Shown: positions 11,407-39,774, numbered from the stretch's first letter. The stretch is DNA of 64,000 nt from Bacteroidales bacterium (GCA_965230435.1 CBDDLB010000004.1:335292-399291); one strand, 5' to 3'. Made by a program: numbers and translations. Notes: a model not told the origin generated them from the letters alone.

Positions 11407-12486
11407 TTGTTTATTTGCTTAGTTTCAGTAACTTAATGTTAGTATTGACGTTAAAGTTCATGATATGATCCCAGAAGGCAAAGACGATTTATTGATAGCA
11501 ATCTATTTTTATATTTGGAAAAATTCCTTAAGCTAATTTTGAAATCGCTGTTTCTTCTTTTTTATTTTCTCTGGATACTTGTATCTATTATAGATAAGCA
11601 CTTAGCCTTATTAAGCAAAAAAGATTCAGAAGGTGATGATTTGCTTACATATTATATTTTTACTAAAGTCATTTTTTAAAACATATGTTAATTTGGTTTG
11701 ATAAAACTGTCTCTGGATCAGAGTTAGGGGATTTGAGTTTGCAATATCAACAAGTAAGACCAGAGTTTGAAAACGTTGAAAAATGGATCGAGAAAGTATT
11801 GTAAATACTAGTTGATCTGATTAAGTGTAAAACGAATTTCACATTTTTTGGTATGAATTTAACCTTCCCTTGATGATGGACAGTATATATAACAAAATAA
11901 GTTTCACGTACAGGTCGGAATCGTATATAAAAATCGAACTTGAGCAGTTGGCTTATTTAGACACTCCAGAATTACAAGTGCAGGTTGCAGGACAGCTGTT
12001 AAGGAAATTGGCTGGAGTAACCTGTTCCCCAACGGATAAAGAAAATGAATTGGATCTTTTTATAAAAGATGAACTACATAGGTTTTGGCAGACTTATCTG
12101 GATGTGAAAAACCCTCAAATAGGAGTTGAAATATTAGTGAACGATATTCATTTCGAGAAAGGAAAATCGTTTGATATTGTGAAGTATGCTTTAGGCAAAG
12201 CTTTTTACAATTTGCTTGCACTGAGGTTTAGTGAATGTTCTTTGAATATTAGCTTAGACAGGTGGGATAATCAGTTTTTCTATGAACCAGATGTAATCAG
12301 AAAACGACTTTCCCATTTTAAGTATAATTATCAGAAGAAAGTTGTATCAAACGAAGTTAAATCCATCCGTTATTTTATTGGACATGATGTAGGCCGAGGC
12401 GAAATAGATATGGTAATGTGGCAAATTCATTCTGGTCGTTTTATCATAGACCTTCCCGAAGAGAAAGTCTCACGCTTAAACGGAAT

Positions 12487-13654
12487 GGCTGTGTTCGGGT
12501 TGATTGTTGCTTGCTTTTTTTGTAATTTACATAAAAAAAGCAGATGGACAAATTAGACGAAATCAGAGCTCTTTTTGCAGACCTATCACCTTCCGATAAA
12601 AATAGTTTACTTGATGAACTTTATTTATGTACAGAAGAACTTGAACTGACAGGCAATACAGTTTCCCATTGCCCTCACTGTGCCTGTGAAAAAATGAGCA
12701 AATACGGATTCAGTAAAGGAGTTCAACGCTATAAATGCAGTGGTTGCGGCCGCACTTTTACAGAAACTACCGGTACTGTATTACATGGACTTAGAGACAA
12801 GGAGAAATTTTTAAAATTTGCCTGCCATATGCTAGAGGAAGATTATACCCCTCTTCGCAAAATGGCGGGTAAGTTTCAGATACACCTTGAGACAGCATTC
12901 GAATGGCGTCACAAGGTATTGGTATCCATACCTGAGCTGGATGAACGGTTTGAAAAGGAAACGGAGCTGGATGATTTATGGTTCAGGTACAGTCAAAAAG
13001 GAAGAAAAGGACTTGAGTTTTCCAAGGTGAGAGGGGGAAGTAAAAAAAAAGGGGATAATGAATACAGTGTCAAGCTGGTTGCTGCAAGTGATGGGGATAA
13101 GTCCCAGTTCAAAGTAACCAGGATCGGTCGCATAAGTGCTGCGGATTTACAACAGACAGTAGGGGATAAATTTAGCAAAACAGCCTCTTTAGTTTCGGAC
13201 AAACACCCCAGCATCGCTTCATTTGCAAAAAATAACAGGCTTGAACATACAACTTTCAAAGCCAGTGAACATACAGATGAAAATGGGAAAGGTGTTCAAC
13301 TGATAAATAACATCGCAGAAAGAATAGACACATTCATTAACAAAAGGTGCAAAGGAGTAGCGACTAAGTATATCCAGTCATACGCCAATTGGTTCAAATA
13401 TAAAGAAGATGCTAAAAAGAACCGGCTTGAGGATTTCTTATCCAGTGCACTCAAAAACAAGAATGGCTGGAAAGTGTTTGCTAATATTGAGAAAATCTAC
13501 AAAAAGTTCATCAACAACCATTCTCAGCGAACATATAGGTGCCCAACTGTAGATAGATATAAGGCGAACAACTGGGAGCAAGAGCAGGCAATGCAATATG
13601 CTTTTTTTTGATCAAAGTCAATTTTTATTACCAACATTAAAGCCGAACACAGCC
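12487..13654 (+). mobile_element. IS1595-family insertion sequence
   Basis: Imperfect ~24-bp terminal IRs: GGCTGTGTTCGGGTTGATTGTTG (from 12487) versus the revcomp of CCAACATTAAAGCCGAACACAGCC (ending 13654). The 8-bp target duplication AACGGAAT lies at 12479-12486 and 13655-13662. It carries a single transposase ORF. Confidence 0.85.
12544..13611 (+). CDS. IS1595-family (ISXO2-like) transposase
   Basis: 355 aa. N-terminal Zn-ribbon CPHCACEKMSKYGFSKGVQRYKCSGCGRTF, followed by a DDE-type region. The size, 8-bp TSD and IRs fit IS1595. Confidence 0.75.
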   Translation: MDKLDEIRALFADLSPSDKNSLLDELYLCTEELELTGNTVSHCPHCACEKMSKYGFSKGVQRYKCSGCGRTFTETTGTVLHGLRDKEKFLKFACHMLEEDYTPLRKMAGKFQIHLETAFEWRHKVLVSIPELDERFEKETELDDLWFRYSQKGRKGLEFSKVRGGSKKKGDNEYSVKLVAASDGDKSQFKVTRIGRISAADLQQTVGDKFSKTASLVSDKHPSIASFAKNNRLEHTTFKASEHTDENGKGVQLINNIAERIDTFINKRCKGVATKYIQSYANWFKYKEDAKKNRLEDFLSSALKNKNGWKVFANIEKIYKKFINNHSQRTYRCPTVDRYKANNWEQEQAMQYAFF

Positions 13655-14434
13655 AACGGAATTATTTGGGGGCTGAATTATGCATATGATATTTATCGCG
13701 AAGAAGTAGAAGAGCCTGTAGGTATTTTTCTGGAACTTATCCCCACTTGTGAAAGAACAGGCTATAAAGATAAAGCAATGGCATATGCAGCCGCAATGTC
13801 CCTTTGGGAACTTTTGGGATTCTCACCTAATGAGGGTATTTACTTCGATGAACACGAAAATTTTTATGGAGGCAGTGAAGAAAAAGGTCATTTCAATTTT
13901 CCAAAACACAAAGAATGTCCTCCGAGGGCTAACATACATTATCATGAACTATTCACTAACGAAGAGCAGTTCTTCGAAAGAAGATGGTCGAGCCTTACTA
14001 TGAGGGGAATGCATAACCCATTGGAATATATGCAGCTAAAAGATCTAATTGTTTTAGATTGCAAAAAATACGTGAAACCAGTTGCCGATTACATTAAAAA
14101 AATTCATTTGTTTTTAGAGGCCAAGTTGTATCGGCGTAAATAAAGCTAAAAGTATTTATAATGAGTGGTTTATGTTTGATTTTAAAATGGGCTTAATTTG
14201 CAATATTTTATCATTAATCAGGAATTTATAATTCCACTTTACGAAGTTAACGTTTAAGCTGAAAGCGTTTCAATTTCATCTGCTTTCTTAAAGTCATTGG
14301 TTAATTGGGACATCGGTCATTAAATCTGTCTAAATACGGAAAGCCAATCACAGAAGTTTTTTTTGAAAATCAATAGTCCAGTTTTCTGCACAAACTTCAG
14401 AAAGTAAAGATAATATCGGAAATGAAGAAATAAT

Positions 14435-14986
14435 ATGACGTATTCAGATAATGATCTCGAGACAATATTAAAAAAGGCACTTAAGGATAATAGATGTAAA
14501 TTGAATATCTTTAATTTCGAAATATCTATACTTCCTGATTTAATTTATGAATTAGTCGACTTGAAGGAGTTGATCATTTCGGAGCCTATTTTTTCCCTTT
14601 CCAAAGAGATACGAAAACTTAAGCGACTTAGAGCTTTAGATTTACTAAATACCAATATAGAAGAATTACCTCCTGAAATTGTTTCTTTAACGAACTTGAA
14701 GCGTCTTGTTTTATCAGGAAGTCCTGTTCAAAGAATTCCTGATAACATTCATTTACTCAAAAATATCAGACGGCTAGATTTGTTAGGAACTAAAGTTGAA
14801 GAAATCCCTTTTAATATTACTCGGATGAAGGAGCTACAACATCTTAATATTGCGCATAGTAATATTAAGGTAATTAATGAAGAGGTAGTATCAATGCCAT
14901 CTTTGACCACTATCTATATAGATCGGACACAAGCGGAACAGAATAGCACTTTAGAATTGAGAAATATTGTTAAGGTAATAATTTAA
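14435..14986 (+). CDS. Leucine-rich-repeat protein (candidate immunity or cassette gene)
   Basis: 183 aa made of tandem ~23-aa LRRs (LRALDLLNTNIEELPPEI, LKRLVLSGSPVQRIPDNI, IRRLDLLGTKVEEIPFNI, LQHLNIAHSNIKVI). Confidence 0.8.
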   Translation: MTYSDNDLETILKKALKDNRCKLNIFNFEISILPDLIYELVDLKELIISEPIFSLSKEIRKLKRLRALDLLNTNIEELPPEIVSLTNLKRLVLSGSPVQRIPDNIHLLKNIRRLDLLGTKVEEIPFNITRMKELQHLNIAHSNIKVINEEVVSMPSLTTIYIDRTQAEQNSTLELRNIVKVII

Positions 14987-15052
14987 AAAATTGCCTTCGT
15001 GGATTCATCCATCTCTCTTTCTATTGAATTTTTCCTAAGTATATTACTTACT

Positions 15053-15547
15053 ATGAAACACACAATACAAATCCTATTTCAGCAATTTATCCAGCTTGGT
15101 TCTAGCAGAAATTATCTAAATGAAAAGCAAAAACAGCTATTGTTGCAATATCGAGAAAATAACCCTTCTATTTGTGGTGAAGATGAGCTGATTCTGGAGG
15201 ATTGGCTAAAAACCAAGCAGAACCTTTTTTTTATAGTAGAGTTGATATTAGTTGTTAAAACTTTACAGAAGAAGTTACTGCCTCCTCTGGTATTTTGGGC
15301 ACTTGATATACAGGATCACGACTTCGATAGAAGAATTATGGAGGTTTGTGTACGGATCTTTGGTTTCAAAGAGGTAGATGATTTATTATTTACTGTTTTT
15401 AAAGAAGGTGATGATGAACAAAAAACGAAAGTAATCCAACTACTTTACCATGTAACAGATGAGTCATACATTTGGGACGAGGCTGGAGGTTATTATGATG
15501 AGTTAGGTATTTGTCAACAATGTGATGAAAATCAAGATTTCTTATAG
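15053..15547 (+). CDS. Hypothetical cassette protein
   Basis: The ORF-track entry 14999-15547 begins at GTG. The first ATG (MKHTIQILFQQF...) is at 15053. No motif recognised. Confidence 0.5.
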   Translation: MKHTIQILFQQFIQLGSSRNYLNEKQKQLLLQYRENNPSICGEDELILEDWLKTKQNLFFIVELILVVKTLQKKLLPPLVFWALDIQDHDFDRRIMEVCVRIFGFKEVDDLLFTVFKEGDDEQKTKVIQLLYHVTDESYIWDEAGGYYDELGICQQCDENQDFL

Positions 15548-15743: not shown

Positions 15744-15831
15744 ATAACGATATTGAGTTTAGCTACAAATTATAATGTAAAGTTCAGAGATAAGTTTCAA
15801 GGCAGATTTTCACTACAAGTAACAGGGGGGG
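15744..15831 (+). repeat. Cassette-junction repeat, copy H (degenerate right half)
   Basis: ATAACGATATTGAG...TTATAATGTAAAGTTCAGAGATAAGTTTCAAGGCAGATTTTCACTACAAGTAACAGGGGGGG aligns with the right half of copies A-D. Confidence 0.6.
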
Positions 15832-15980
15832 CAAAAAATGACTCTTGATAAAATAGGAACTGATGTCGAAATTCGATATAGTTATGACTACCCTGATAGC
15901 TATGGATCTACAAGGGAATTGCGTGAGAAACCGATCAAACAGTGACAGGCTGATTTTGAAAAATTTAAATAAGAATATTT

Positions 15981-16475
15981 ATGGAAAAGCTAGCTTGTTT
16001 AATAAATTTGAGTTCTTCTTTAGAATTTGTTAAAAAGTCTGTACCAGAACTGTATGTAGAACAATTAGGTAAAGAAAATGTATATGTTTTGTCTAAAATT
16101 GGCTTGCCCAGAAAAATATTAGATTTTTCATTTGATAATAAGCTAGGGGTGAAAGAAGAGTGTTTGATTTTAGGGCATTGGGGGGAAGAACCTGTTATAT
16201 GCGATATGAAACTAACAGCTATTTATGCCGGCAGCTCCCATTTTTATTTAGCCAAGTCTGTGATGAATTTGTTATCCCAACTTTTAACTATAGAATATTT
16301 TTGGACAAAAATAGTTGGTGAAAATAAGTTTGGGAGTTACAGAGAGAATTTGAAACTCTATGCATCTTTTCTAGAGAAAAGCCTGTTGGAAATAGATAAA
16401 GATTTACTAAAGAATGATAATTCTTATTTCTGGGGAGCGATGATAGAGGATATTGAACATGGTATCGTTGAGTGA
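15981..16475 (+). CDS. Hypothetical cassette protein (immunity-like)
   Basis: 164 aa, cytoplasmic-looking. The stop codon directly abuts repeat copy A. Any resemblance to SUKH-type immunity proteins is an unverified impression. Confidence 0.5.
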   Translation: MEKLACLINLSSSLEFVKKSVPELYVEQLGKENVYVLSKIGLPRKILDFSFDNKLGVKEECLILGHWGEEPVICDMKLTAIYAGSSHFYLAKSVMNLLSQLLTIEYFWTKIVGENKFGSYRENLKLYASFLEKSLLEIDKDLLKNDNSYFWGAMIEDIEHGIVE

Positions 16476-16652
16476 CCCCCCCGATTAGAAAAGCAAAAAC
16501 AGCACTGTTCCACAGAGCGTTAGCCTGCGACTACGGTTGATACCATACAATCCAACAATTACGATATTGAGCGTAGCCACAGGCTAGCGCTCAGCTATAA
16601 TGTGAAGTTTAAAGATAAGTATTGAAGTCGCTTTTGCTACAAGGAGCGGGGG
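16476..16652 (+). repeat. Cassette-junction repeat, copy A (full length)
   Basis: C-run at 16476-16482. Inner inverted-repeat arms at 16515-16536 and 16571-16592. Right end ...GCTTTTGCTACAAGGAGCGGGGG (to 16652). Confidence 0.85.
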
Positions 16653-16828
16653 ATTTGGAAAATTATGAGGAAGGTTTCATTCCTGGGCCAATAAGTAAAA
16701 TTATTGGGGAATGGTGTCACAATAACATAGTGAATTTGAACTTAAAGTGGTGTAATTATAGAAGAAATATGAATGGACATTGGTTTAAGGTTGATTGAAT
16801 ATTTCACAATTGAATAAACCCTTATTCA

Positions 16829-17953
16829 ATGAAAAAAAAAATAACTTTCAAAAGCTCAGCAGATTTTCAAGGTTACAGTTACTCTATTGTTGTAGATATT
16901 GAGTGCCAAGATAAAAAGCAATCTGAATCGGAAAAGAAGCAAAATTTTTCAGTATGGCTAAATGAAAAGCCATGTTCTGACAAAGATGGGCTTTTTCAAA
17001 TTCATTCTGATTTTTCGAGAAGTACTATTGGCCAAAGGGCAAGCTTGATTTCGATACATATAGTCCGTCCTCAAATAGAAAACCATTGGGGAACATTTAC
17101 ATCACAAAAAAAACTTTTAAAGTATGCTTTAAACGAAATATCGAACATCTTCACTGGCATAGTATCACCTTATAACTTTTTTGACCCTTATTCTTCTTTA
17201 TCAGGAGAAGCAAACAGTCTTCTCAGGTATAAAGAAAAGGAAGCCAATGTAATCGTATCTGAGTACGGAATCGGCGAAATTGAATTCCATAGAGGAGGTG
17301 TAAAACTGTTAATCCAAGAACGAGAAGAGCCAGGTTTGGATGTTTTTTTTACACCAAATAGCTTTGTCAAAAGAACGCCGGAGTGGTACAAGAAGTTAAT
17401 GCAATGCAATAATATTCAAGAACAGCGTTTTTTTTACAAAAAATTCAGAACCCCAAACAGATGCGTGTTTCAGGATATGGCAATACAGGGTATCACTTAT
17501 GCTTACGAACAGTATGTGAAAGAATTTCCTGAGAAGAAAAAACGGGGGCTTTGGGTTAACGTCATTGATATACCTGTCTTTTCTGGAACACAGCCAGAAA
17601 TGGCTCTTCTGGCAGCTTCGAAAGCTTTTTTCCAGGCTGTGGACTTTGAACATAGTCAAACTGTATACTTTGACAAAGAAACAGAATGCATTATCGCTCC
17701 AGGTTACCGAAAAACAATTCCTGCACCTTCCGGTTTTGCTTTAGAACTAATTTCTAATTATCCCTATCCTGAAAAAGAAAATCCATACATTGGTTGGACA
17801 TACGATCAGTTTCTTCAATGCAAGCCAAGGTTATTAACTAAAGACAAGAAAATAAAAAGATATTTACTAGAAGTAATAAGTGCTATTACTAAAGAATTGG
17901 CTGTTTATCATAAAATTGAAAAGGATAATTCTGGTTTTCGGTTGGGTAATTAG
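16829..17953 (+). CDS. Hypothetical protein, intact paralogue of the IS-split gene at 11870-14143
   Basis: 374 aa. Alignable blocks: AIQGITYAYEQYVKEF vs GIIWGLNYAYDIYREEV; ALLAASKAFFQAVDFEHSQTVYFDKE vs AYAAAMSLWELLGFSPNEGIYFDEHE; LKYALNEISNIF vs VKYALGKAFYNL. Confidence 0.65.
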   Translation: MKKKITFKSSADFQGYSYSIVVDIECQDKKQSESEKKQNFSVWLNEKPCSDKDGLFQIHSDFSRSTIGQRASLISIHIVRPQIENHWGTFTSQKKLLKYALNEISNIFTGIVSPYNFFDPYSSLSGEANSLLRYKEKEANVIVSEYGIGEIEFHRGGVKLLIQEREEPGLDVFFTPNSFVKRTPEWYKKLMQCNNIQEQRFFYKKFRTPNRCVFQDMAIQGITYAYEQYVKEFPEKKKRGLWVNVIDIPVFSGTQPEMALLAASKAFFQAVDFEHSQTVYFDKETECIIAPGYRKTIPAPSGFALELISNYPYPEKENPYIGWTYDQFLQCKPRLLTKDKKIKRYLLEVISAITKELAVYHKIEKDNSGFRLGN

Positions 17954-17962
17954 AATATTATC

Positions 17963-18120
17963 ACCCCCATGGCAGTGTTCCGCCGAGCGTTAGCCTGTGG
18001 CTACGCACGATACCATGCAATTCAACAATTACGATATTGAGCGTAACCAAAAGCTAACGCTCAGCTATAATGTGTAGTTTGAAGATAAGTATTGAAGTCG
18101 CTTTTGCTACAAGGAGAGGG
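17963..18120 (+). repeat. Cassette-junction repeat, copy B (full length)
   Basis: CACCCCC...GAGCGTTAGCCTGTGGCTACGC-loop-GCGTAACCAAAAGCTAACGCTC...GCTTTTGCTACAAGGAGAGGG. Confidence 0.85.
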
Positions 18121-18222
18121 AGTAAGACTATAGATAAGTTTGATCCTGCTGTATTTAAAGAATTACAGAAGTATTATTTAAAAATGATGAAGTTACATGG
18201 TAAATATTATCTTAAAAAATAA
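18070..18222 (+). CDS. 50-aa ORF starting inside repeat copy B (orphan module or small peptide)
   Basis: The ATG sits in the repeat's TATAATG. Product MCSLKISIEVAFATRRGSKTIDKFDPAVFKELQKYYLKMMKLHGKYYLKK. The first ~16 aa are repeat-encoded and the rest is unique. It is below the ORF-track length cutoff; the translation is mine. Confidence 0.3.
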   Translation: MCSLKISIEVAFATRRGSKTIDKFDPAVFKELQKYYLKMMKLHGKYYLKK

Positions 18223-18231
18223 ACTTTGGAA

Positions 18232-18657
18232 ATGATGAATAATAATAAATCTGGATATTGGGCTATTGCTATGATTATTACTTTAACAATTATATCCACG
18301 ATTGTAATGGAATATTTTAGAGGAACTCTTAAAGAAAATCATAAATACACAGTAGGAAAGACCGTTAAGTTTATTTATCCAAGAAATGGTACTATCATAA
18401 CTTACCAGTATCATGTTGAGGGCAAACTGTATACAGGAGAATTGGGAGTGAAACGAGATTATGCCTTACTTGAAAGATGTTTCATTGTTATGTTTAATCC
18501 CGATCACCCTTGGGTTTGTAAATTTTTAATTGACAAAGAGGTAATTGATACGGTTGTTCCTCCAAGTCTAGGTTGGGATTCTATTCCGCCAAATATTTTA
18601 GTTGATACCCCCCGCTCACAGCACACCTACAAGGAGCGGGGGGCTCCCAGAAAATGA
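18232..18657 (+). CDS. Small membrane protein (cassette gene)
   Basis: The ORF track starts at TTG 18226 and the first ATG is at 18232. TM helix YWAIAMIITLTIISTIVM. The last ~15 codons are encoded by mini-repeat copy E. Confidence 0.55.
   Translation: MMNNNKSGYWAIAMIITLTIISTIVMEYFRGTLKENHKYTVGKTVKFIYPRNGTIITYQYHVEGKLYTGELGVKRDYALLERCFIVMFNPDHPWVCKFLIDKEVIDTVVPPSLGWDSIPPNILVDTPRSQHTYKERGAPRK
18608..18643 (+). repeat. Cassette-junction repeat, copy E (36-bp mini derivative, ends only)
   Basis: CCCCCCGCTCACAGCACACCTACAAGGAGCGGGGGG. This is the left end joined to the right end and forms a 10-bp GC hairpin. Confidence 0.7.
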
Positions 18658-18748
18658 AAAGCATAACCTTGATGTCCTATGGCGGTGGGAAGGAGCTGTT
18701 TTAATACCAGTGAGATCTTGTTCATGATCCTGCTAGTTGAGTGTTTGA

Positions 18749-19123
18749 TGTTTTGCAGGAGCAGTTGCGGCTATACCTGGCGCTGTATTTGGAGCAGGTA
18801 CAGCAGGTGGATATATTGCTTTAGCTGGTATTGCCAATGGAGTTGATGATATGATAGAGGCAGCTGGTTTTAATAATAACAAATCTTTAACGGTTAATTT
18901 AGCTTCGTTAATTGGTGATGCCCCCGAGCTTAATGAAGCGGTTGCAACCTCTATAAAAACTGTTGGTACTATTATTACATTAAGAGACGGAGTTTTCTCA
19001 TTGCGTAAAGTTTCTGTAGCACCTACTACTAATGTAGTTGTCATTGGAACTGTAATAGGTTCTTCGAACGATCTAAGATCATTTATAGATTTAGCAAAGG
19101 AAATATCTTCTGATGAAAAATAA
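18749..19123 (+). pseudogene. Start-less toxin fragment with a Gly/Ala-zipper membrane segment
   Basis: The frame is open from the stop at 18746-18748: CFAGAVAAIPGAVFGAGTAGGYIALAGIANGVDDMIEAAGFNNNKSLTV... The first ATG comes only at 18851. The Gly-zipper resembles the TM region of the 33096-35228 effector. The 131-aa minus-strand ORF here looks like its antisense shadow. Confidence 0.45.
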
Positions 19124-19204
19124 TCCATTTAAGTTAAATAAACTTGATTATCTTGTCTTGTATTGAAAATGATACAGGTCAATTAATACTATTTTTACTG
19201 CCAT

Positions 19205-19393
19205 ATGAAGAAAAAAGGCGAAATATTCTTTTTATTATTTTTTCTCATCCTATGTGTTGATGTTATGTTGGGACATTTATATATTAGATATCCACACTTA
19301 TATAGTATTGTTGTAAGATTATATTTTGTTCCAATAGCACTTATTATTTATAATATACTACATCACAGAAATAAAAATTTATTTTCTACCTAA
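19205..19393 (+). CDS. Small two-TM membrane protein
   Basis: 62 aa and strongly hydrophobic (IFFLLFFLILCVDVMLG, YFVPIALIIYNIL). Its position after the toxin fragment suggests immunity. Confidence 0.4.
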   Translation: MKKKGEIFFLLFFLILCVDVMLGHLYIRYPHLYSIVVRLYFVPIALIIYNILHHRNKNLFST

Positions 19394-19400
19394 TTATACA

Positions 19401-19775
19401 GTGAAAGTATTTAAAATTATCTTTTTGTGTATGTTTTCTTTAGGGCTAGTGTTAATAACAATGCAATTTACTTATTGGAATAGAGGACAGGAAATGAATA
19501 AATATTGGGTAGGAGTAGTTATAGAGCAGGATTATACGTTAGATACAGTTCGTGTAACGAATGGCTTTTTGATAGAAGAAACAGGAACAAAATCTTTGGT
19601 CAAAGAGAAGATTGCACAAATTTCGTACTGTATTCATGGCGATACAGTTGATAATGCATTCATAGTTAAACGAGGCGAAACAATTAACAAAGGTGATTCT
19701 GTGGTCATAAAAATATCCGCCAAGTTTCCTACTCTTTTTCAAGTTGTTGATAACATAAATAATAAAAAAAGATAA
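19401..19775 (+). CDS. Small membrane-anchored protein (cassette gene)
   Basis: 124 aa with an N-terminal TM or signal anchor KIIFLCMFSLGLVLITM. Confidence 0.5.
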   Translation: MKVFKIIFLCMFSLGLVLITMQFTYWNRGQEMNKYWVGVVIEQDYTLDTVRVTNGFLIEETGTKSLVKEKIAQISYCIHGDTVDNAFIVKRGETINKGDSVVIKISAKFPTLFQVVDNINNKKR

Positions 19776-19808
19776 TAATGACATTGATGTATATAGAGCC
19801 TTGACATA

Positions 19809-19920
19809 CCCCCTCGCTCAGCGAAGTAAAAAACAGCACTATTCCACAGGCTAACGCTCAGCTATAATTGTGAAGTTTATAGATAAGTATTGAAGTCGCT
19901 TTTGCTACAAGGAGCGGGGG
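19809..19920 (+). repeat. Cassette-junction repeat, copy C (inner hairpin deleted)
   Basis: CCCCCTCGCTCAGCGAAGTAAAAAACAGCACTATTCCACAG|GCTAACGCTCAGC...GGAGCGGGGG. The deletion lies exactly between the two CCACAG motifs of the hairpin arms. Confidence 0.8.
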
Positions 19921-20043
19921 AGAAATATTATTAGAAAAATTTCAAGAATATGAAGTTCGTCATTTTAAACGTACTGTTATTGAGGTCGATAAGAAAATTC
20001 TCTTAGGTTTCAATATAAAAGTTAAAGTAAGACCAATAACAAA

Positions 20044-20508
20044 GTGATGATAGATATCAAAATAACTTTCCTTACAACATGCAAAGATGATGTTCAATTC
20101 TGGCAAGACTATAAGGAGATTGAAGAATGGCTAATTGATTTATATGAAATACGCCCCTCTTTTTCTTTAAATGTAGAAGAACTTAGAGAAAAAAATAACT
20201 TTTTGTTTTACCCAGGTTTTGTGTTGCCAGAAAAGTATATGGTCTATTTAGATAGAATCTTTTTTTTTAGAACCCCAGAAAACGTTACGCTCGAAAATGT
20301 AATTGCTAGGAATCATCCTAAAAACGCAATGTACACTTACCCGAGGTTCTTTGGCCGAAGATGTGTTGCAAGTAAAATTGGACTTGAACATCTAGTAGCT
20401 AGTGCAAGTAAAAATTGCTATATCTGGGATGATTCGTATGATAACTTGATAGACATACTAATACCTTACCTGTTAGCATACAAAAATATGTTTCTTTCAA
20501 ATATATAG
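20044..20508 (+). CDS. Hypothetical cassette protein (immunity-like)
   Basis: 154 aa with GTG at 20044 and ATG at 20047. The start overlaps the stop of the repeat-C-derived frame (AAGTGATGA), suggesting coupling to an upstream orphan module. Confidence 0.55.
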   Translation: MMIDIKITFLTTCKDDVQFWQDYKEIEEWLIDLYEIRPSFSLNVEELREKNNFLFYPGFVLPEKYMVYLDRIFFFRTPENVTLENVIARNHPKNAMYTYPRFFGRRCVASKIGLEHLVASASKNCYIWDDSYDNLIDILIPYLLAYKNMFLSNI

Positions 20509-20562
20509 GCTGAGTTATGATATTGTCATCAGATTTGAATTTCTATTGGGTATAGAAGTACT

Positions 20563-20727
20563 CCCCCCGCTCAGTGAAGTAAAATCCGTTGAGCGTTAGC
20601 CTGTAGCTACGATCGATACCATACAATTCAACAAGTACGATATTAAGCGTAGCCACAGGCTAACGCTCAGCTATAATGTGGAGTTTAAAGATAAGTATTG
20701 AAGTCGCTTTTGCTACAAGAAGCGGGG
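20563..20727 (+). repeat. Cassette-junction repeat, copy D (full length)
   Basis: CCCCCCGCTCAGTGAAGTAAAATCCGTT-GAGCGTTAGCCTGTAGCTACGA-loop-GCGTAGCCACAGGCTAACGCTC-AGCTATAATGTGGAG...GCTACAAGAAGCGGGG. Confidence 0.85.
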
Positions 20728-20921
20728 TGACAGGATCAGGGACAGCTAAAGGAATTCGTAAATTAGACACTTACGATAAGAAATCACTTGTTGTTAAGGG
20801 AAAAACTATTAAGGTTCGAAAGATTGAACCTCCAGTACCATCTCGTTTCATTGTAACATATGATGCGAGGAGAACAACAAGAGAAAAATTACGCGTTTCT
20901 CCAGAGTCAAGAACTTATTAA
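20676..20921 (+). CDS. 81-aa ORF starting inside repeat copy D (orphan module or small protein)
   Basis: MWSLKISIEVAFATRSG (repeat-encoded) followed by the unique basic tail VTGSGTAKGIRKLDTYDKKSLVVKGKTIKVRKIEPPVPSRFIVTYDARRTTREKLRVSPESRTY. Confidence 0.35.
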   Translation: MWSLKISIEVAFATRSGVTGSGTAKGIRKLDTYDKKSLVVKGKTIKVRKIEPPVPSRFIVTYDARRTTREKLRVSPESRTY

Positions 20922-20954
20922 ATATTCTGACTGTTAGACTAATCTAAAAACGCA

Positions 20955-21563
20955 ATGGGACGTAAAGAAACTCAATTTTATGTTGAATGTATTCTGATGT
21001 ATTATGTTATGTATCATTATCCTGACCAGATTGAAGAAATTGTTCCCGATACGATCATTGATAGACTTGATGAGTATGCTAATATATCCGATCAGTCAAT
21101 AGGGTGGTTGGCGTTTAAAAAATTTGACCCAGAAAATTTGATCTGGCTTAAATCTGATTTTAGTGCCAACTCTTTTATTAGAAAAAAAGCGAAATATGTA
21201 AATTTATTTTATGAACATTTCCGAGATCAGAGCCATAAAGATTTTGAAGGAGAGGATATCGCTTATGTTTTATTCTTCTATGAAAATGGTTTTCTAATCC
21301 ATATGTATGAAGTTTTTGATACAATAGTATCTTCCTCTGAATATGGAGAACTTGGCAATCGATATCTTCAAATAAAGCCTGAATTCGATAAATCTAAGAA
21401 TTGGCTTGTAAATGAAAATGAAAATCTAAAAAGTCATCATTTACCCAAAGCACAGCTAGCTGAGTTGGAGGCAAGGTCTTTGGAAGCCAATCAGAGGTTT
21501 GAGAAGATTTGGCGTGAAGTTGTTGCTGATACAACAAAAGAGATATGTGAAAAATTCACATAG
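20955..21563 (+). CDS. Hypothetical cassette protein (immunity-like)
   Basis: 202 aa, acidic and cytoplasmic-looking, no motif recognised. Confidence 0.55.
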   Translation: MGRKETQFYVECILMYYVMYHYPDQIEEIVPDTIIDRLDEYANISDQSIGWLAFKKFDPENLIWLKSDFSANSFIRKKAKYVNLFYEHFRDQSHKDFEGEDIAYVLFFYENGFLIHMYEVFDTIVSSSEYGELGNRYLQIKPEFDKSKNWLVNENENLKSHHLPKAQLAELEARSLEANQRFEKIWREVVADTTKEICEKFT

Positions 21564-21972
21564 GTATAACAATGGTTTAGAATGTCTGCTTTTCTCAAAG
21601 TAAGTAATACAGGTTTGGGCGTGTAGCCAGATACGTTTAGCAGCTTTGGTAGTTGTTGATTCACTTCGGCGAGCAAGGGAATTTTGTTATACATACGTTT
21701 TTTGATTTAGTCATTTTTTTGTAATTTACAATACTTGATAATGTGTAATATTTGAATTAATGATAACAGAAGAAATGAGTTTAGCGTATGCACGATTGAT
21801 CAAGATGGAATTTGTTTGATATTTTTAGAGTCACCAGTAGATTGTATTCTATTCTATGATTATGAGGTGTTTGAAGAAACGCTAGATAAAATATTGGCCG
21901 TATGTGCCGAAGAATCTGAAGTGCCTAAGAAGATGTATATTACAACTGATATTGGAGGTGAAGCAATAATAA

Positions 21973-22227
21973 ATGTATGTAGCAAAGATTGAATCAGATA
22001 TTACAATGCTAGAGTTTGATTGTGATCGTATTGATGCATTGTACTTTGACGTCAAGATTACAACTTCAGATTCAATAAATTTATGGTTTACTTTGTCTGA
22101 TAAGAAAACATCTTATTGGGTAAAGCAACTGATTAAGGCCTATCGGCAGGAAGAAAGAGTTTTATACATATTCGATCAGGCGACTAATGAAATTCAGGAC
22201 TTATCTTTTCAGATAAATCCTTTGTGA
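21973..22227 (+). CDS. Hypothetical small protein, possibly the 3' part of a frameshifted gene
   Basis: 84-aa ORF. A 78-codon start-less open frame (21756-21992) overlaps its 5' end in another frame. Confidence 0.4.
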   Translation: MYVAKIESDITMLEFDCDRIDALYFDVKITTSDSINLWFTLSDKKTSYWVKQLIKAYRQEERVLYIFDQATNEIQDLSFQINPL

Positions 22228-22254
22228 AAGGATAGATGACAAATCATATAATCT

Positions 22255-22280
22255 CCCCCGCTCAACGAAGTAAATCCAGC
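22255..22280 (+). repeat. Cassette-junction repeat, copy F (left end only; marks the array boundary)
   Basis: CCCCCGCTCAACGAAGTAAATCC, after which similarity stops. It lies 27 nt after the stop of 21973-22227 and just before the esterase gene. Confidence 0.6.
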
Positions 22281-23306: not shown

Positions 23307-23633
23307 TTATTTAATTTTTTCTATCGCCTCTGCGTAAACAGTTTCCCCTTTTGCTGTTACCTTTAGGAAGTACTGCCCTGCGTTTAGCTCTGAGATATCG
23401 AAACCGATAGAGCTTTCTTCTCTTACTACTTCTGAATGAAGAAGACCGAATGTTTTGTCGTAAATCTTAACACGAACAGTTTCTGACTCAACCTCACCAA
23501 CCTCTACTGTTACAAGGTTATATCCGTTGTGTTCTACTTTTACGTTTGCTTTAACGGCAGGCTTTACGTTCTCTGCAACTGCTACATTCAATGCTAAACT
23601 TATAATGGCGAATAATATGGCTAACTTTTTCAT
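23307..23633 (-). CDS. Small secreted protein with T9SS-type C-terminal sorting domain (copy 1)
   Basis: 108 aa. Signal peptide MKKLAILFAIISLALNVAVA. C-terminus ...LNAGQYFLKVTAKGETVYAEAIEKIK resembles Por_Secre_tail. Confidence 0.65.
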   Translation of the reverse strand: MKKLAILFAIISLALNVAVAENVKPAVKANVKVEHNGYNLVTVEVGEVESETVRVKIYDKTFGLLHSEVVREESSIGFDISELNAGQYFLKVTAKGETVYAEAIEKIK

Positions 23634-36990: not shown

Positions 36991-37111
36991 ATTCTTCATT
37001 CCTTTTTCTTCTAAAAATTTATCAAAATATGTAAAGAAATTATTCAACGCATTTGATTCGTCCTGAGAATAAAATAATTCTTTCCCAGCCTCTGGTATCA
37101 TCTAAATTATA

Positions 37112-38136
37112 GATCGTGTTAACCATGTAATGCTATTTGTTTATTATAGTCCGTGATAAAATATTTAATCGCCCCAATATGGTTGTCCAGTTTTTTAGAA
37201 AATGAGAGCGTCTGTCTGACCAACCTGCTACAACGTTGCCTGAGGGTGTTGTTAAAGCGTTCGATGTGGTTGGTAAACCTTGACTTAAATGACTTATTAA
37301 TAGGGGTATGCTTTTCCTGTGGTATCACATTCTGATACGCTTTATAAGAATCGGTGAAGAACATGAAGTTCTCTTTAAAATATTCCGGGATACTGTCCCA
37401 TAGTTTCCAGGCCGACTCTTGACTTCTGTCCCCGATATGGAACCCGATTATCTGTCTGTCAATTACATTCATGGCCAACCAGATCCACTGCTTATTGCCC
37501 TTATTATCAACGAAGCTCCATGCTTCATCGGCCTCACATGGGGGCATGAAGAAAAGGATGGAATTTTTATCGTCAAGGATATGGTGCGAGAAGCTGTCGT
37601 TGGGCAGGCCTGCCTCTTCCTGTTCCAGATCAAGCCCGGGACAGGTATATTCCTGTAAGTCTTCAATTTGATCACACTGTCCTTCTGGTATGAACTCATG
37701 TTCCATACCCGATTTTTCGTTGTTTTCCAGGAGATTATATATTTTCTCATCCAGCTTTGCGTCCGAATAATTTTCAACAGATTCCATATCAATAATAACA
37801 TTCAGGTTGTCAGGAACTTCTTTGTATACTTCTCTGATAAATTTCAACAGCCATTTAAGGCTGATGTGCACACACCTACAGATACCCCGCAGGGAAATGC
37901 GTTCCAGTAACAGTGACTTTACAAAGCTCTTATCCTCTTCTGATACAAGCTTTTGTTCCGGATTTTCAACAAATTGACGGCCGCATTCAAGACAGTAGTG
38001 ATTCTGCTTTCCATTGTGAATATGCCCGTTCAGTTTTATATTTTTACTTTGGCAACGCGGACACAAAAGATGATCTTTGTTCATGATCACAAAAGTAAAA
38101 TTCTTGATTAGATAGCATTACATGGTTATCACTACC
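37112..38136 (-). mobile_element. IS1-family insertion sequence
   Basis: ~26-bp IRs: GATCGTGTTAACCATGTAATGCTAT (from 37112) versus the revcomp of ATAGCATTACATGGTTATCACTACC (ending 38136), i.e. GGTAGTGATAACC... The 8-bp direct duplication AAATTATA lies at 37104-37111 and 38137-38144. Confidence 0.85.
37119..38090 (-). CDS. IS1-family transposase (single fused ORF)
   Basis: 323 aa. InsA-like Zn finger CPRCQSKNIKLNGHIHNGKQNHYCLECGRQF plus HTH, then an InsB-like DDE region (...WIWLAMNVIDRQIIGFHIGDRS...FFTDSYKAY...). Confidence 0.85.
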   Translation of the reverse strand: MIMNKDHLLCPRCQSKNIKLNGHIHNGKQNHYCLECGRQFVENPEQKLVSEEDKSFVKSLLLERISLRGICRCVHISLKWLLKFIREVYKEVPDNLNVIIDMESVENYSDAKLDEKIYNLLENNEKSGMEHEFIPEGQCDQIEDLQEYTCPGLDLEQEEAGLPNDSFSHHILDDKNSILFFMPPCEADEAWSFVDNKGNKQWIWLAMNVIDRQIIGFHIGDRSQESAWKLWDSIPEYFKENFMFFTDSYKAYQNVIPQEKHTPINKSFKSRFTNHIERFNNTLRQRCSRLVRQTLSFSKKLDNHIGAIKYFITDYNKQIALHG

Positions 38137-38326
38137 AAATTATACCTGTCCTGTAGCCATTTGCTAAAATCATTCAATAAATCCATCCCAACCTCTTCCT
38201 CTTCGTTTCTGAAATACCAGCCATCAATGAATGATTTTAAGCATGAGATACTTTTACTGCTTATGTACATTGCAGGCCTTGGCCTGATCATATTTATTAA
38301 TTCTATAATATTCATCTATAATATTT

Positions 38327-38617
38327 TTAAAAGTTAGTTCCTGTGATAGAGTGACCGCTTGGAGAAAACAAATCGTTCATCCAACCTTTGAAATCTGTTC
38401 CTTGTGGATTTAGATTATCAAAGACTGTATCTCCAACTTTTATAGCCTTATGTGTACCATTCTTTGAAATATTATCACCTAATTTATAACCCCCTGACTC
38501 CTTGTAGCAAAAGCCACTCTGATACTTATCTCCATACTTCACATTATAGCTAAGCGTTAGCTTGTGGCTACGCTCAATATCGTAATTGTTGAATTGTATG
38601 GTATCGAGCGTAGCCAC
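38327..38617 (-). CDS. Orphan toxin-like module whose 5' half is the junction repeat (copy G)
   Basis: 96-aa ORF with a GTG start inside the repeat's hairpin arm and an in-frame TAG two codons upstream. ...DTIQFNNYDIERSHKLTLSYNVKYGDKYQSGFCYKESGG is repeat-encoded. It is followed by the unique tail YKLGDNISKNGTHKAIKVGDTVFDNLNPQGTDFKGWMNDLF. A C...H...D papain-like arrangement is possible but unverified. Confidence 0.45.
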   Translation of the reverse strand: MATLDTIQFNNYDIERSHKLTLSYNVKYGDKYQSGFCYKESGGYKLGDNISKNGTHKAIKVGDTVFDNLNPQGTDFKGWMNDLFSPSGHSITGTNF

Positions 38618-38645
38618 AGGCTAACGCTCAGCGGAGATGAAGCCA
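38490..38645 (-). repeat. Cassette-junction repeat, copy G (inverted orientation, variant without the internal TGA)
   Basis: The revcomp reads CTCCGCTGAGCGTTAGCCTGTGGCTACGC-loop-GCGTAGCCACAAGCTAACGCTTAGCTATAATGTGAAGTATGGAGATAAGTATCAGAGTGGCTTTTGCTACAAGGAGTCAGGGGG. Confidence 0.8.
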
Positions 38646-38859: not shown

Positions 38860-39135
38860 TTCTGCAAAACTGGCTAATTTTCTGGCTTTAATTTATGACC
38901 ATGTCCAGTATCATGGTTACTGAACTGCATGGCACCTACCGAAGTAACAGACTATCAAACAGCAAAATAGCACTATCATCAACTTCTTGAGTGAAGGCAT
39001 AAAACCACTGCTGAACAAATGAGGCTTATCCAACAGCTTGACGAAGACAATAAACAAACCATCTTTAAACTCATTGACAAGATGCTTACCAATAAAAAGT
39101 TTAAAGACTTCTTCAATAAAAGATTGCTGGTTTGT
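38860..39135 (+). pseudogene. Possible decayed XRE-type HTH regulator remnant
   Basis: Plus-strand pieces in different frames: ...LANFLALIYDHVQYHGY*, ...KIALSSTS*, and MRLIQQLDEDNKQTIFKLIDKMLTNKKFKDFF. The last resembles the C-terminal tail of Bacteroidota XRE-family proteins as I remember them. Confidence 0.25.
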
Positions 39136-39138: not shown

Positions 39139-39774
39139 TTAAGAAGTTTCTACAGGCTCAAAAATACAACCTTTTATATCAGCAGCCTCTAAAGCTTCTT
39201 TTGCTACTTCAGATACAAAGATTTCACTAGCTTTTTCCTCTATTCTAAAAATGGGAGGAAAACCATTCTGTGCTTTTTTCAATACTAATTTATTGATATG
39301 TCCCACTGGTAGAATAAAATCCTCTTCATATTTTGAGTTTTCATAGTCAAACGCCTTCAAATAGGACATTATTTGAACTATTTTATATTCTGTATTTACT
39401 GGAACTTCAGGTTTTAAATTATTACTAGAGTCGAACAATTCATCGAAATATGTATCACTTATCATTACAACAGGAATTAAGCGAATATTAATTTCACCTA
39501 AACTACTTATTATCTCTATCATCCTGTCACTTAAAACAGGCACCATAAGGCTTGTCAATGGATAATCATATTCTGGTATTAAATTAAAATTTGCTTGCAA
39601 ATAAATTTGTTTTGGAAAATCAAAAGCCCTTGTACTGATAATATCTGCACCAAATTCATTATCATTCTTAAAAGGCAAATGAAATGCGTCTTTTTCAGGG
39701 TCACCTGAATGATTAAAATCCCAGTTAAGTTTATATACTTCTCCCATTGTTAATTTAATTTTCGTGATTTCCAT
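39139..39774 (-). CDS. Candidate immunity protein of the AHH nuclease effector
   Basis: 211-aa cytoplasmic ORF that overlaps the 3' end of the toxin gene by 25 nt. Family not assigned. Confidence 0.55.
   Translation of the reverse strand: MEITKIKLTMGEVYKLNWDFNHSGDPEKDAFHLPFKNDNEFGADIISTRAFDFPKQIYLQANFNLIPEYDYPLTSLMVPVLSDRMIEIISSLGEINIRLIPVVMISDTYFDELFDSSNNLKPEVPVNTEYKIVQIMSYLKAFDYENSKYEEDFILPVGHINKLVLKKAQNGFPPIFRIEEKASEIFVSEVAKEALEAADIKGCIFEPVETS

Follow-up and report, generated by a model that had tools for sequence, protein, structure and literature searches.

Several described systems come close to the locus reported here. The rAID-1 (recombinase-associated acquired interbacterial defense) clusters of Bacteroidales are defined by an XerD-like tyrosine recombinase at their 5' end, and their genes have counterparts in established immunity families (Ross et al., bioRxiv 10.1101/471110; PMC12247911). 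In the T6SS clusters of Vibrio cholerae, immunity-gene arrays result from sequential effector displacement (PMC5361080). We describe an array that resembles known orphan-immunity arrays and whose cassette junctions carry an element that, judged by sequence comparison, is new and without relative in the collections searched. The census of this element covers one 64-kb window (the whole stretch of DNA analysed) of a 1.67-Mb contig from one genome. A T9SS sorting domain and a gingipain-type protease place the host in the Bacteroidota, and its genome is a poorly sampled one that carries an eCIS.

The repeat family comprises eight copies and one weak piece in the window, and seven of the eight lie within 6.5 kb (Table 1). 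The seven copies of the first-pass annotation are all present, and the profile search that it proposed yielded an eighth, copy G, beyond its range. The repeat has no match among genome contigs, metagenome contigs, viral contigs, plasmids or phages. The full copies A, B, and D share 86-89% identity over 149 nt (nhmmer E 1e-58 to 1e-65). The family is not a product of chance, since matches to its ends far exceed expectation: the 16-mer right end occurs five times at ≤2 mismatches, as against 0.08 expected at ≤3 mismatches, and the C-run left end has 10 matches where 1.0 is expected. Left ends were said to begin 0-55 nt after a stop codon, and indeed they follow one by 0 (A), ~10 (B), 33 (C), 54 (D), and 27 nt (F).

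The junction element is discrete, non-coding and 165-180 bp long, and runs from a C-run with GCTCA through a variable left region, a hairpin, and a right arm of ~75 nt to GAGC and a G-run. Its terminal inverted ends are imperfect and ~10 bp long (CCCCCGCTC / GAGCGGGGG), and the hairpin has a 22-bp stem, perfect in the consensus, with a ~34-nt loop. Conservation is highest in the right arm (91-98% identity), which adjoins the downstream ORF. The folding energy of copy D is -66.8 kcal/mol for the plus strand, with z = -6.75, and -69.3 kcal/mol for the minus strand, with z = -7.3. Hairpin decay is one-sided, with 1-3 mismatches per copy and no compensatory changes among the copies, and the hairpin is lost at two of the six internal junctions (C and E) and is therefore not maintained at each junction. 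Rfam holds no match to the repeat.

Table 1. Positions in the 64-kb window of the repeat copies, the array ORFs and neighbouring elements (TSD, target site duplication)
Feature	Position	Strand	Remarks
True MITE	11255-11406		8-bp TSD
Repeat-free head of co-directional low-GC gene row	11870..15547	+	IS1595-split 364-aa gene, 183-aa LRR protein, 182-aa ORF
IS1595-family element	12487-13654		8-bp TSD AACGGAAT
Copy H, degenerate right part (loop to G-run, 7 G)	15744..15831	+	nhmmer E 3e-18, alignment; 11-nt deletion; alignment shows no left end or 5' hairpin arm
Short ORF, 35 aa, putative toxin remnant	15838..15945	+	6 nt past H G-run; frame open 37 codons from junction
164-aa cassette ORF, immunity-like by position only	15981..16475	+	no family match; stop codon directly abuts copy A C-run
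Copy A, full repeat	16476..16652	+	nhmmer E 9e-65; C-run, left region, 22-bp hairpin with ~34-nt loop, conserved right arm, G-run
Short ORF abutting A G-run	16653..16798	+	open 47 codons (repeat frame 2)
374-aa cassette ORF	16829..17953	+	
Copy B, full repeat	~17963..18121	+	nhmmer E 5e-58; left region shortened, 3 stem mismatches; internal ATG (18070) opens 50-aa ORF
Short ORF abutting B right end	18121..18222	+	open 33 codons (frame 1, ..ATRRGS..)
141-aa ORF	18232..18657	+	N-terminal transmembrane segment; 3' end reads through mini copy E
Copy E, 36-bp mini copy	18608..18643	+	only two ends (CCCCCCGCTCA..CCTACAAGGAGCGGGGGG)
Decayed toxin-like remnant after E	18644..19123	+	open 27 codons from G-run, then 3 stops, then 124 codons, glycine-zipper-rich
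Two small membrane-protein ORFs (62 aa, 124 aa)	19205..19775	+	after glycine-zipper remnant
Copy C, hairpin deleted between two CCACAG motifs	19809..19920	+	nhmmer E 1e-23; both ends retained; 1-nt insertion in TATAAT
Short ORF abutting C G-run	19921..20046	+	open 41 codons; stop abuts start of 153-aa ORF
153-aa cassette ORF	20047..20508	+	no family match
Copy D, full repeat	20563..20727	+	nhmmer E 2e-61; best-preserved hairpin (1 mismatch / 22 bp); internal ATG (20676) opens 81-aa ORF
Short ORF abutting D G-run	20727..20921	+	open 64 codons
Last cassette	20955..22227	+	202-aa ORF, frameshifted ORF (~21756-21992), 84-aa ORF
Copy F, left end only, ~26 nt	22254..22280	+	..CCCCCGCTCAACGAAGTAAATCC; right edge of array, 75 nt ahead of esterase ATG
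Small immunity-like ORF	37040..38315	-	80 aa rejoined, no family match; begins 11 nt past Tox-PL-2 remnant; split by IS1-family element
IS1-family element	37112-38136		8-bp TSD TATAATTT
Tox-PL-2 papain-fold toxin remnant after G	38327..38489	-	Pfam PF15643; C-terminal ~40% of domain
Copy G, hairpin and right arm, no C-run left end	38490..38636	-	nhmmer E 1.4e-46 and 1.1e-50
Very weak degenerate match, hairpin/loop region	38885..38958	-	nhmmer E 1e-4; between Imm11 and copy G
Complete polymorphic toxin and Imm11 immunity gene	39139..43814	-	immediately upstream of copy G

Two partial copies break at about the same place: copy F, whose homology ends about where the hairpin would start, runs to ..AAATCC, and copy G starts at TCCGCTGAGCG. 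A shared breakpoint is expected at array edges if each cassette consists of hairpin and right arm, genes, and left end, in that order. It could also reflect hairpin-stimulated deletion, because the internal deletion of copy C likewise starts just 5' of the hairpin, at TTCCACAG. Loss of the palindrome between 6-bp direct repeats, as in copy C, is the outcome of replication slippage at a hairpin, and copy E looks like two deletions of this type, so that the earlier use of these derivatives as proof of recombinational activity was an over-reading.

The layout of repeat, short ORF, and larger ORF is present, as had been described, at every copy with a right end. Directly at the G-run, 7/7 right-ended copies have a frame that stays open for 27-64 codons (under the null, the best of three frames has a median of 19 codons and P(≥34 codons) = 0.17 per copy), and the next ORF begins 0-81 nt past the short-ORF stop. 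The short ORFs are 5'-truncated coding remnants. The contents of the cassettes are mutually unrelated, not duplications, and the GC content of the array (0.32-0.36) lies below that of most other 2-kb bins of the window (up to 0.44). A search of the cassette ORFs against immunity families, suggested by the first-pass annotation, drew a blank: none matches Pfam, NCBIfam, PADLOC or PDB, or a known immunity family. The 374-aa ORF, the sole large cassette ORF searched in big protein collections, has no homolog among 5.8e9 proteins and is weakly similar to the IS-split 364-aa gene heading the array; the glycine-zipper remnant has none among 1.8e9 representatives. The AF2 model of the 164-aa ORF (pLDDT 40) is unusable.

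Copy G ties the repeat to a toxin locus. The window carries bona fide polymorphic eCIS toxins with immunity genes, and copy G lies ~500 nt downstream of, and co-directional with, an intact pair in which the toxin has an N-terminal eCIS_core/DUF4157-like region and a C-terminal AHH nuclease and the immunity gene is Imm11. The remnant that follows copy G matches positions 64-102 of the 103 in the PF15643 profile (34 bits against a cut-off of 25; E 2.4e-8 and 3.5e-8), and as it retains only the C-terminal part of Tox-PL-2, the toxin gene was cut mid-domain. This cut, the open frames abutting the G-run, and the larger ORF after each of them together identify the cassettes as a toxin 3' remnant plus one or more immunity-like genes. 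The earlier comparison with an orphan toxin/immunity array gains from the Tox-PL-2 remnant and the AHH/Imm11 pair, but the larger ORFs are "immunity-like" by position only.

With confidence a little short of even, we favor an orphan poly-immunity array in which the junction element is a recombination substrate. The array would belong to the toxin arsenal of an eCIS-bearing Bacteroidota, each cassette being made up of a toxin-gene 3' remnant, whose cut falls at an arbitrary point (inside the domain where a judgment is possible), and one or two small genes in the position of a cognate immunity gene. One copy of the lineage-specific element would stand at every cassette junction and serve as the DNA substrate for addition, loss, and reshuffling of cassettes, either by homologous recombination among copies, some of which may arrive on incoming DNA, or by a site-specific enzyme encoded outside the window and acting near the 5' base of the hairpin. 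The downstream genes, if kept in this way, would protect the cell against toxins that it no longer makes. Counting against this reading are the decay and loss of the hairpin, the absence of a recombinase from the 64 kb, and the lack of immunity-family matches among the cassette ORFs.

The repeat might instead be a non-autonomous mobile element of an ordinary kind, such as a MITE or an ERIC or Correia-like sequence, that favors an AT-rich accessory region, the array layout being incidental or a result of recombination between element copies. It has the discreteness, MITE-like size, inverted ends, and internal palindrome of such an element; its indel decay and truncated derivatives recall old MITEs, and the genome is IS-rich, with IS3, IS1595, and IS1 and a true MITE within 64 kb. 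We nevertheless consider this reading unlikely. The target site duplications that the first-pass annotation took as the mark of a MITE were found at none of the copies, whose flanks we inspected, whereas the true MITE and both IS elements checked have 8-bp duplications. Moreover, 8/8 copies are co-directional with the flanking genes (two-sided p ~0.008 if insertions are independent), and with every right end abutting a 5'-truncated frame, insertion would have to hit the junction of immunity gene and toxin remnant each time. No copy lies in housekeeping or eCIS structural intergenic regions or elsewhere in the other ~50 kb of the window. The suggested check for a DDE gene did uncover transposases (IS3, IS1595, IS1), but all are unrelated to the repeat, and no IS in the window has ends matching it.

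Less probable still, in our judgment, is that the repeat is a block displaced from a "master" toxin locus situated elsewhere in the genome, namely its 5' UTR with a conserved N-terminal leader or pre-toxin segment, the orphan modules having arisen through homologous recombination and the displacement of C termini, the classical route of the Rhs, CdiA, and MafB loci. The right boundary is sharp, with coding sequence directly after it, and the hairpin of copy G contains a GTG from which a 96-aa ORF passes in frame through the repeat into the Tox-PL-2 remnant. Across the right arm, frame 3 stays open in G and H, the two copies that diverge most, and encodes similar residues in both (YNVK[FY]xDK[FY]Q), where A-D carry TGA; in copies B and D, an ATG-initiated leader, M[WC]SLKISIEVAFATR[SR]G, is fused to the remnants. 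Stop codons in all three frames of the hairpin region are, however, common to all copies, which argues that the element is not a displaced coding block, and, with the repeat as reference, the downstream remnants occupy every one of the three frames (4, 1, 1 in the six copies with an assigned frame). Differences between H and A-D are not third-position-biased (3, 3, 4 by hand count), and those in the loop among A, B, and D are all non-synonymous. Nor is the left end a ragged 5' truncation, being a defined C-run; Tox-PL-2 is not cut at a domain boundary, and the block is part of none of the toxin genes of the window. We regard it as very unlikely that the element is mainly an expression module copied with the cassettes, although such a role can coexist with that of a recombination substrate. 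A very stable RNA hairpin behind each immunity gene would then stabilize the 3' end, mark a processing site or act as an insulator, and an outward promoter or leader would serve the cassette that follows. In favor of this are the high stability of the hairpin on either strand, the constant position of the element just past a stop codon and just ahead of the next ORF, and the location of the best-conserved arm beside that ORF. A TAGCCA-16-TATAAT match (10/12) in the 3' arm is directed into the cassette in copies A and D, and a reading of the sequence of G shows it there as well. The Bacteroidota primary sigma factor uses -33 TTTG and -7 TAnnTTTG, and in this Bacteroidota host TAnnTTTG occurs inside no repeat copy. 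There is also no U-tract after the hairpin, no terminator call on the repeats, and no Rfam family to which they belong; the hairpin is gone at two junctions, and the truncated toxin genes and half copies at the array edges are left unexplained.

Among known repeats, Correia/NEMIS, ERIC, and NIMEs are likewise intergenic elements of ~100-200 bp beside genes, with inverted ends and strong hairpin potential, and NIMEs separate silent cassettes in Neisseria. They occur as numerous scattered copies in either orientation, and Correia elements have TA duplications; the present repeat lacks duplications, is strictly oriented, and within the 64 kb is confined to toxin-remnant junctions. Integron arrays and CALINs (attC clusters without integrase) share with our array tandem, co-oriented, unrelated cassettes and an imperfect-palindromic repeat just past the stop codon. 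The high similarity among the repeats of our array recalls sedentary chromosomal integrons, and half sites at its edges fit a crossover inside the site. As the first-pass annotation had stated, however, the repeat is not an attC site. The hairpin GTTAGCC...GGCTAAC, on both strands, is the reverse of attC R''(RYYYAAC)...R'(GTTRRRY), and pairs over 22 contiguous bp with no extrahelical bases and no unpaired spacer at its center. The length of the element exceeds that of attC (57-141 bp), its bulk would be at the 5' rather than the 3' end of the cassette, and the 64 kb encode no IntI.

The V. cholerae arrays and Rhs/CdiA strings also keep effector 3' remnants with immunity genes in heterogeneous, non-paralogous modules, and the copy G module adjoins an intact toxin/immunity pair, as in displacement arrays. 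Those systems have no discrete structured junction element: the repeated block of Rhs and CdiA belongs to the coding sequence of the main gene and the CT domain stays whole, whereas the block found here is non-coding, with inverted ends and a hairpin, and the toxin is cut mid-domain. As for rAID-1, set apart here by description rather than by its motif sequences, membership falls away, at least within the window. Its recombinase stands at the 5' end, where our 64 kb encode no tyrosine recombinase, as previously noted, and no serine recombinase either; its genes belong to known immunity families, in contrast to those of our array; and the neighboring weapon is a T6SS there and an eCIS here. The ~170 bp hairpin element and the evident toxin 3' remnant at each junction also separate our array from rAID-1. 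Both consist of co-oriented short genes in a low-GC Bacteroidota region with conserved repetitive intergenic sequences, and both are read as a stock of orphan immunity genes that counter toxins delivered by contact or injection.

The first-pass annotation had described seven copies and derivatives of one hairpin-bearing element punctuating a row of plus-strand cassettes (array 1), and the repeat search, counts of its end motifs against expectation and folding all confirm them. The three full copies, A, B and D, are 86-89% identical across 149 nt. Four copies (A, B, C and D) have the 53-nt right arm in common at 91-98% identity, and the repeat search recovers six occurrences of the 16-nt right end and four of the left end. 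There are 5 matches to the right-end 16-mer at ≤2 mismatches, against 0.08 expected at ≤3 mismatches, and 10 to the C-run left end against 1.0 expected. The element is 165-180 bp long and runs from the C-run through a left region, a hairpin with a ~34-nt loop and a right arm to a G-run. Its ends are imperfect ~10-bp inverted repeats (CCCCCGCTC / GAGCGGGGG), and its consensus stem comprises 22 contiguous base pairs with arms 5'-GAGCGTTAGCC...GGCTAACGCTC-3', in which a GTT box comes first and an AAC box last, whichever strand is read. Folding of copy D gives -66.8 kcal/mol (z = -6.75) for the plus strand and -69.3 kcal/mol (z = -7.3) for the minus strand. Decay of the stem is one-sided, at 1-3 mismatches per copy, and 5 of 6 stem transitions keep G·T pairing on the minus strand, a proportion that is not significant. 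The hairpin is gone at two junctions; copy C is without it, owing to a deletion between two CCACAG motifs, and copy E consists of the two ends alone. Copy H comprises a degenerate right part from which 11 nt are deleted, and copy F is the leftmost ~26 nt alone.

A search with a model of the repeat, proposed at first pass and run here as an unfiltered nhmmer scan of the 64 kb with a profile built from A, B and D, revealed an eighth copy, G (E 1.4e-46), on the opposite strand. The scan also returned a very weak repeat piece at 38885-38958 and, beyond these and the known copies, no further copies in the 64 kb. A complete toxin/immunity pair lies ~500 nt upstream of copy G in the same direction. 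Its 1354-aa toxin resembles the window's eCIS_core/DUF4157 proteins at the N-terminus (blastp) and carries an AHH nuclease at the C-terminus; DUF4157 at a toxin N-terminus is a published marker of cargo of extracellular contractile injection systems (eCIS; PMC8213781). The Imm11 gene that follows is cognate to this intact toxin and is the sole immunity-family match. The stretch after the G-run of copy G, taken alone, matches Tox-PL-2 (PF15643) with 34 bits (cut-off 25, E 3.5e-8), the repeat-encoded part contributing nothing. Because the match covers only profile positions 64-102 of 103, we conclude that a papain-fold toxin gene has been severed mid-domain after G. A GTG in the 5' arm of this copy starts a frame that crosses the right arm and continues into the Tox-PL-2 remnant. 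A small ORF begins 11 nt after the remnant and is interrupted by an IS1-family element with an 8-bp duplication.

In all seven copies with a right end, one frame is open straight from the G-run, for 37 codons in H, 47 in A, 33 in B, 27 in E, 41 in C, 64 in D and 53 in G. The null for such composition has a best-of-three-frames median of 19 codons, with P(>=34) = 0.17, and since the frames open from the G-run exceed it, we read the short ORFs as coding sequences 5'-truncated by the repeat. After E, the same frame holds a decayed 124-codon glycine-zipper segment (3 stops), followed by two small membrane proteins. The remnants other than that of G have no family match in Pfam to E 10. The junction G-run varies from 4 to 7 G among copies, and a change of one G at the junction of A, B, C, D or E would join the open frame of the repeat to the remnant or separate the two; these length differences may be slipped-strand variation or may be meaningless.

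A larger ORF starts 0-81 nt after each remnant, a spacing typical of toxin-immunity bicistrons. There are ~15 plus-strand ORFs between 11870 and 22227, and GC is 0.32-0.36 in the array versus up to 0.44 in the other 2-kb bins of the window. The larger ORFs are mutually unrelated, which rules out tandem duplication as the origin of the array, save for a weak similarity between the 374-aa protein encoded after copy A and the 364-aa protein at the array head (21% identity over 135 aa, pairwise E 0.001; common motif G[LI].YAY..Y..E...G..........AA......F....[IV]YFD). Judged from sequence, this similarity may be real, and the two proteins may belong to one family without known members. The 374-aa ORF has zero homologs among 5.8e9 proteins and the glycine-zipper remnant zero among 1.8e9 representatives, the homolog search with the G ORF was empty, and the array showed no similarity to the large toxins of the window. 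A single-sequence AF2 model of a cassette ORF had a pLDDT of 40 and was unusable.

The first-pass annotation had likened the larger ORFs to immunity genes, and a search of the cassette ORFs against immunity families did not bear this out, with nothing matched in Pfam (E up to 10), NCBIfam, PADLOC or PDB. Because the larger ORFs match no family, we call them putative immunity genes from their position. Overall, the first-pass interpretation is partly supported. In the last cassette (21756-21992) a frameshifted ORF opens at an ATG near 21760, reaches a stop and resumes in another frame (..DGICLIFLESPVDCILFYDYEVFEE..), and an imperfect short inverted repeat, GTATAACAA / TTGTTATAC, is present at ~21565-21700.

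An eCIS locus and its effectors occupy the minus strand from ~27 to 64 kb (see table); Laminin_G_3 proteins are also encoded there. The SH3_3 + DUF6861 protein and the 109-aa ORF after it may be another toxin/immunity pair. The two ~110-aa paralogs have a signal peptide and a weak match to a T9SS C-terminal sorting domain/DUF3244. A T9SS sorting domain and a gingipain-type protease place the host in the Bacteroidota. The closest homolog of the flanking esterase is just 64% identical, so the lineage is poorly sampled, and the array is absent from the esterase neighbourhoods of the closest relatives (64% and 53% identity). All three DDE transposases of the window come from ordinary IS elements that interrupted genes. 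Removal of the IS1595 element restores a single intact 364-aa ORF, and its transposase (12544-13611) was rejected as the array recombinase, the element being an ordinary gene-interrupting IS bounded by 24-bp TIRs and flanked by an 8-bp TSD. The TIRs of the MITE-like element at 11255-11406 resemble IS1595-type ends.

Features of the array and its surroundings (window positions)
Feature	Position	Strand	Remarks
IS3-family element	8506-9716	-	adjoins FG-GAP protein gene (9771-11162)
MITE-like element, 152 bp	11255-11406		28-nt TIRs starting GGCTGTAG; 8-bp TSD TTGTTTAT
364-aa gene, array head	11870-14143	+	11870-12486 + 13663-14143 once IS is removed
IS1595-family element	12487-13654		24-bp TIRs (GGCTGTGTTCGGG..); 8-bp TSD AACGGAAT
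Junction G-runs	15825-15831, 16648-16652, 18638-18643, 19916-19920, 20723-20726, 38490-38494
Repeat copy A	16502-16650	+	full copy
374-aa cassette ORF	16829-17953	+	after copy A
Repeat copy B	17972-18120	+	full copy
Repeat copy D	20578-20726	+	full copy
Two near-identical ~110-aa paralogs	23310-23645, 24798-25127	-	between esterase gene and eCIS effector region
Endonuclea_NS_2, weak match	25986-26831	-	next gene downstream of 1355-aa repeat protein
1355-aa protein	27045-31112	-	many ~90-aa repeats (..IPGIKSG..VSV..ISKE..); no Pfam match
eCIS locus with effectors	27045-63998	-
SH3_3 + DUF6861 protein, 710 aa	33096-35228	-	glycine-zipper-like transmembrane stretch; then 109-aa ORF
IS1-family element	37112-38136	-	323-aa transposase; TSD TATAATTT; splits ORF after Tox-PL-2 remnant
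Repeat copy G	38490-38636	-	eighth copy
Imm11	39139-39774	-	after AHH toxin
eCIS_core fragment	44947-45219	-
Two eCIS_core/DUF4157 proteins	46011-47531, 48130-49386	-	156-aa N-terminus in common, 89%-identical
Spike tip	49866-50312	-
AAA ATPase	54457-55791	-
CIS tape measure	56301-59978	-

The repeat is a discrete element bounded by two defined ends, each the inverted repeat of the other, and is present at every junction of a heterogeneous array whose cassettes have arbitrary outer limits and intact second genes; half copies lie at the array edges. Copy F keeps the left end to ..GTAAATCC and diverges after it, and copy G diverges upstream of TCCGCTGAGCG, so that both break within a few nt of the 5' base of the hairpin. 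The explanation we favour, to which we give somewhat less than an even chance, is that the element serves as the recombination substrate by which an orphan immunity array is assembled and reshuffled, through host homologous recombination or a site-specific recombinase encoded elsewhere. The recombining unit would run from hairpin and right arm through the genes to the left end, exchange taking place where the hairpin begins on its 5' side, and we prefer this explanation because the half copies at the edges fit such a unit. Campbell-type homologous integration would leave full copies at each edge, unlike the pattern here. The internal deletion of copy C likewise starts at TTCCACAG, just 5' of the hairpin, and palindrome-stimulated deletion could therefore be the source of the F and G breakpoints. 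A bolder proposal, which we hold to be improbable, is that the ~170-nt element serves as attachment site for a new cassette-capture platform, integron-like but unrelated to attC/IntI. A recombinase encoded elsewhere would then insert circular cassettes of toxin remnant plus immunity gene by crossover at TCC(N3)GAGCG, immediately 5' of the hairpin. The upstream edge (G and H) would be left with a half site of hairpin plus right arm, and the downstream edge (F) with one made of the left end.

Were the repeat instead a MITE-like element, which seems unlikely, its imperfect ~10-bp inverted ends, which are matched by no IS within the window, would be as expected, but copies A, B, C, D and E are flanked by no direct repeat that could represent a TSD, whereas three controls in the window (the 11255-11406 MITE and the IS1595 and IS1 elements) do carry TSDs. 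Moreover, all eight copies are co-directional with genes, and within the 64 kb the copies are confined to sites between a toxin remnant and the gene before it, with none elsewhere. In the three respects tested, TSD, orientation and location, the repeat is not MITE-like. We find it quite unlikely that the repeat is a displaced block of a master toxin locus. Copies G and H do keep a frame across the right arm open with similar residues, but A-D have a TGA in that frame, and no similarity links the repeat to any toxin gene of the window. The hairpin region has stops in all three frames that are common to all copies, including G, on which ground the hairpin half, and so the repeat as a whole, is held not to be of coding origin. 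The probability that the right arm was formerly a coding leader is low but non-zero, and we weight it low because the substitutions are without third-position bias and the downstream remnants occupy all three frames.

There is a slim chance that the repeat is an RNA or expression module, a role compatible with that of a recombination substrate. The repeat shows no recognisable promoter: a sigma-70-like TAGCCA-16-TATAAT is present, but the primary sigma factor of Bacteroidota should not use such a sequence, and the Bacteroidota-type -7 motif (TAnnTTTG) is found in no copy. With no Rfam match at the gathering threshold or at E<=10, the repeat is not a described RNA family; the tRNA search was likewise empty.

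Neither the exact right-arm 20-mer in genome or metagenome contig collections, nor a stem-based gapped pattern in metagenome or viral contigs, nor blastn against plasmids and phages gave a match to the repeat. A degenerate 25-mer fitting A, B, D and H had as its sole match a coding sequence in two Pedobacter genomes. This match (5869-5893; 412-436) extends over 29/30 nt inside an orthologous coding sequence (..FFKAYNVKFKDKY..) and reads like 'frame 3' of the repeat (..LSYNVKFKDKY); given its unrelated flanks, we judged it to be chance. The junction repeat appears to be lineage-specific, with no relatives detectable in the collections searched.

Orphan immunity arrays are thought to shape survival in bacterial warfare, and we know of no account of how their cassettes get captured, rAID-1 (recombinase-associated acquired interbacterial defence) included. 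The junction element is unusually legible: its ends are defined, its hairpin is large, and there are half copies at the edges and a copy behind an intact toxin/immunity pair. This anatomy, seen in a single 64-kb window of a single genome, is unusually suggestive and renders a capture mechanism testable. If the element is a recombination site, it would point to a second, attC-independent route to cassette arrays and would link immunity stockpiling to eCIS toxins, whose immunity genes are mostly unidentified (PMC8213781). The capture platform, if true, would let eCIS-bearing Bacteroidota stockpile defences. Should the element turn out to be a lineage-specific MITE, or else a displaced gene block, the locus would be an ordinary orphan-immunity string in an under-sampled lineage.

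Among known systems, integron attC sites have the order R''(RYYYAAC)-L''...L'-R'(GTTRRRY), extrahelical bases, an unpaired central spacer and a length of 57-141 bp. The arms of the repeat, GTTAGCC...GGCTAAC on either strand, show the reverse of this order, its stem is 22 uninterrupted bp and the element is above the attC size range; box order, stem and length thus rule it out as an attC of an integron or CALIN, in agreement with the first-pass view. The absence of a tyrosine recombinase or IntI, also claimed at first pass, holds as well, since Pfam scans of ORFs of at least 120 aa (minus HflX and a few that overlap larger genes) and of a sample of leftover frames detected no Phage_integrase, tyrosine or serine recombinase domain in the window. 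A complete integron has IntI and attI beside its array, and the window has no IntI; a CALIN needs none. The rAID-1 arrays of Bacteroidales combine a recombinase with co-oriented short genes and conserved intergenic motifs (bioRxiv 10.1101/471110; PMC12247911). The resemblance to them noted at first pass extends to at least two co-directional downstream genes with lowered GC, but not to the tyrosine (XerD-like) recombinase, which is without counterpart in the 64-kb window, or to homology of the cassette genes with immunity families.

In displacement of the Rhs/CdiA type the repeated block is coding sequence akin to the conserved part of a full-length toxin, and the C-terminal toxin domain is complete, with its immunity gene next to it, whereas the repeat here has stops in three frames in its hairpin region and the sole identifiable remnant, that at G, is a partial Tox-PL-2 with a small ORF after it. 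The G cassette does match effector displacement of the V. cholerae type (PMC5361080), where remnants and immunity genes lie downstream of an active pair; array 1 has toxin remnants and a head without an intact toxin. The locus differs from displacement arrays in its structured non-coding junction element and mid-domain truncation. Although it departs from each of these systems in defining features that we tested, the locus appears to be an orphan toxin-remnant/immunity array that shares the logic of rAID-1, integron/CALIN and displacement arrays.
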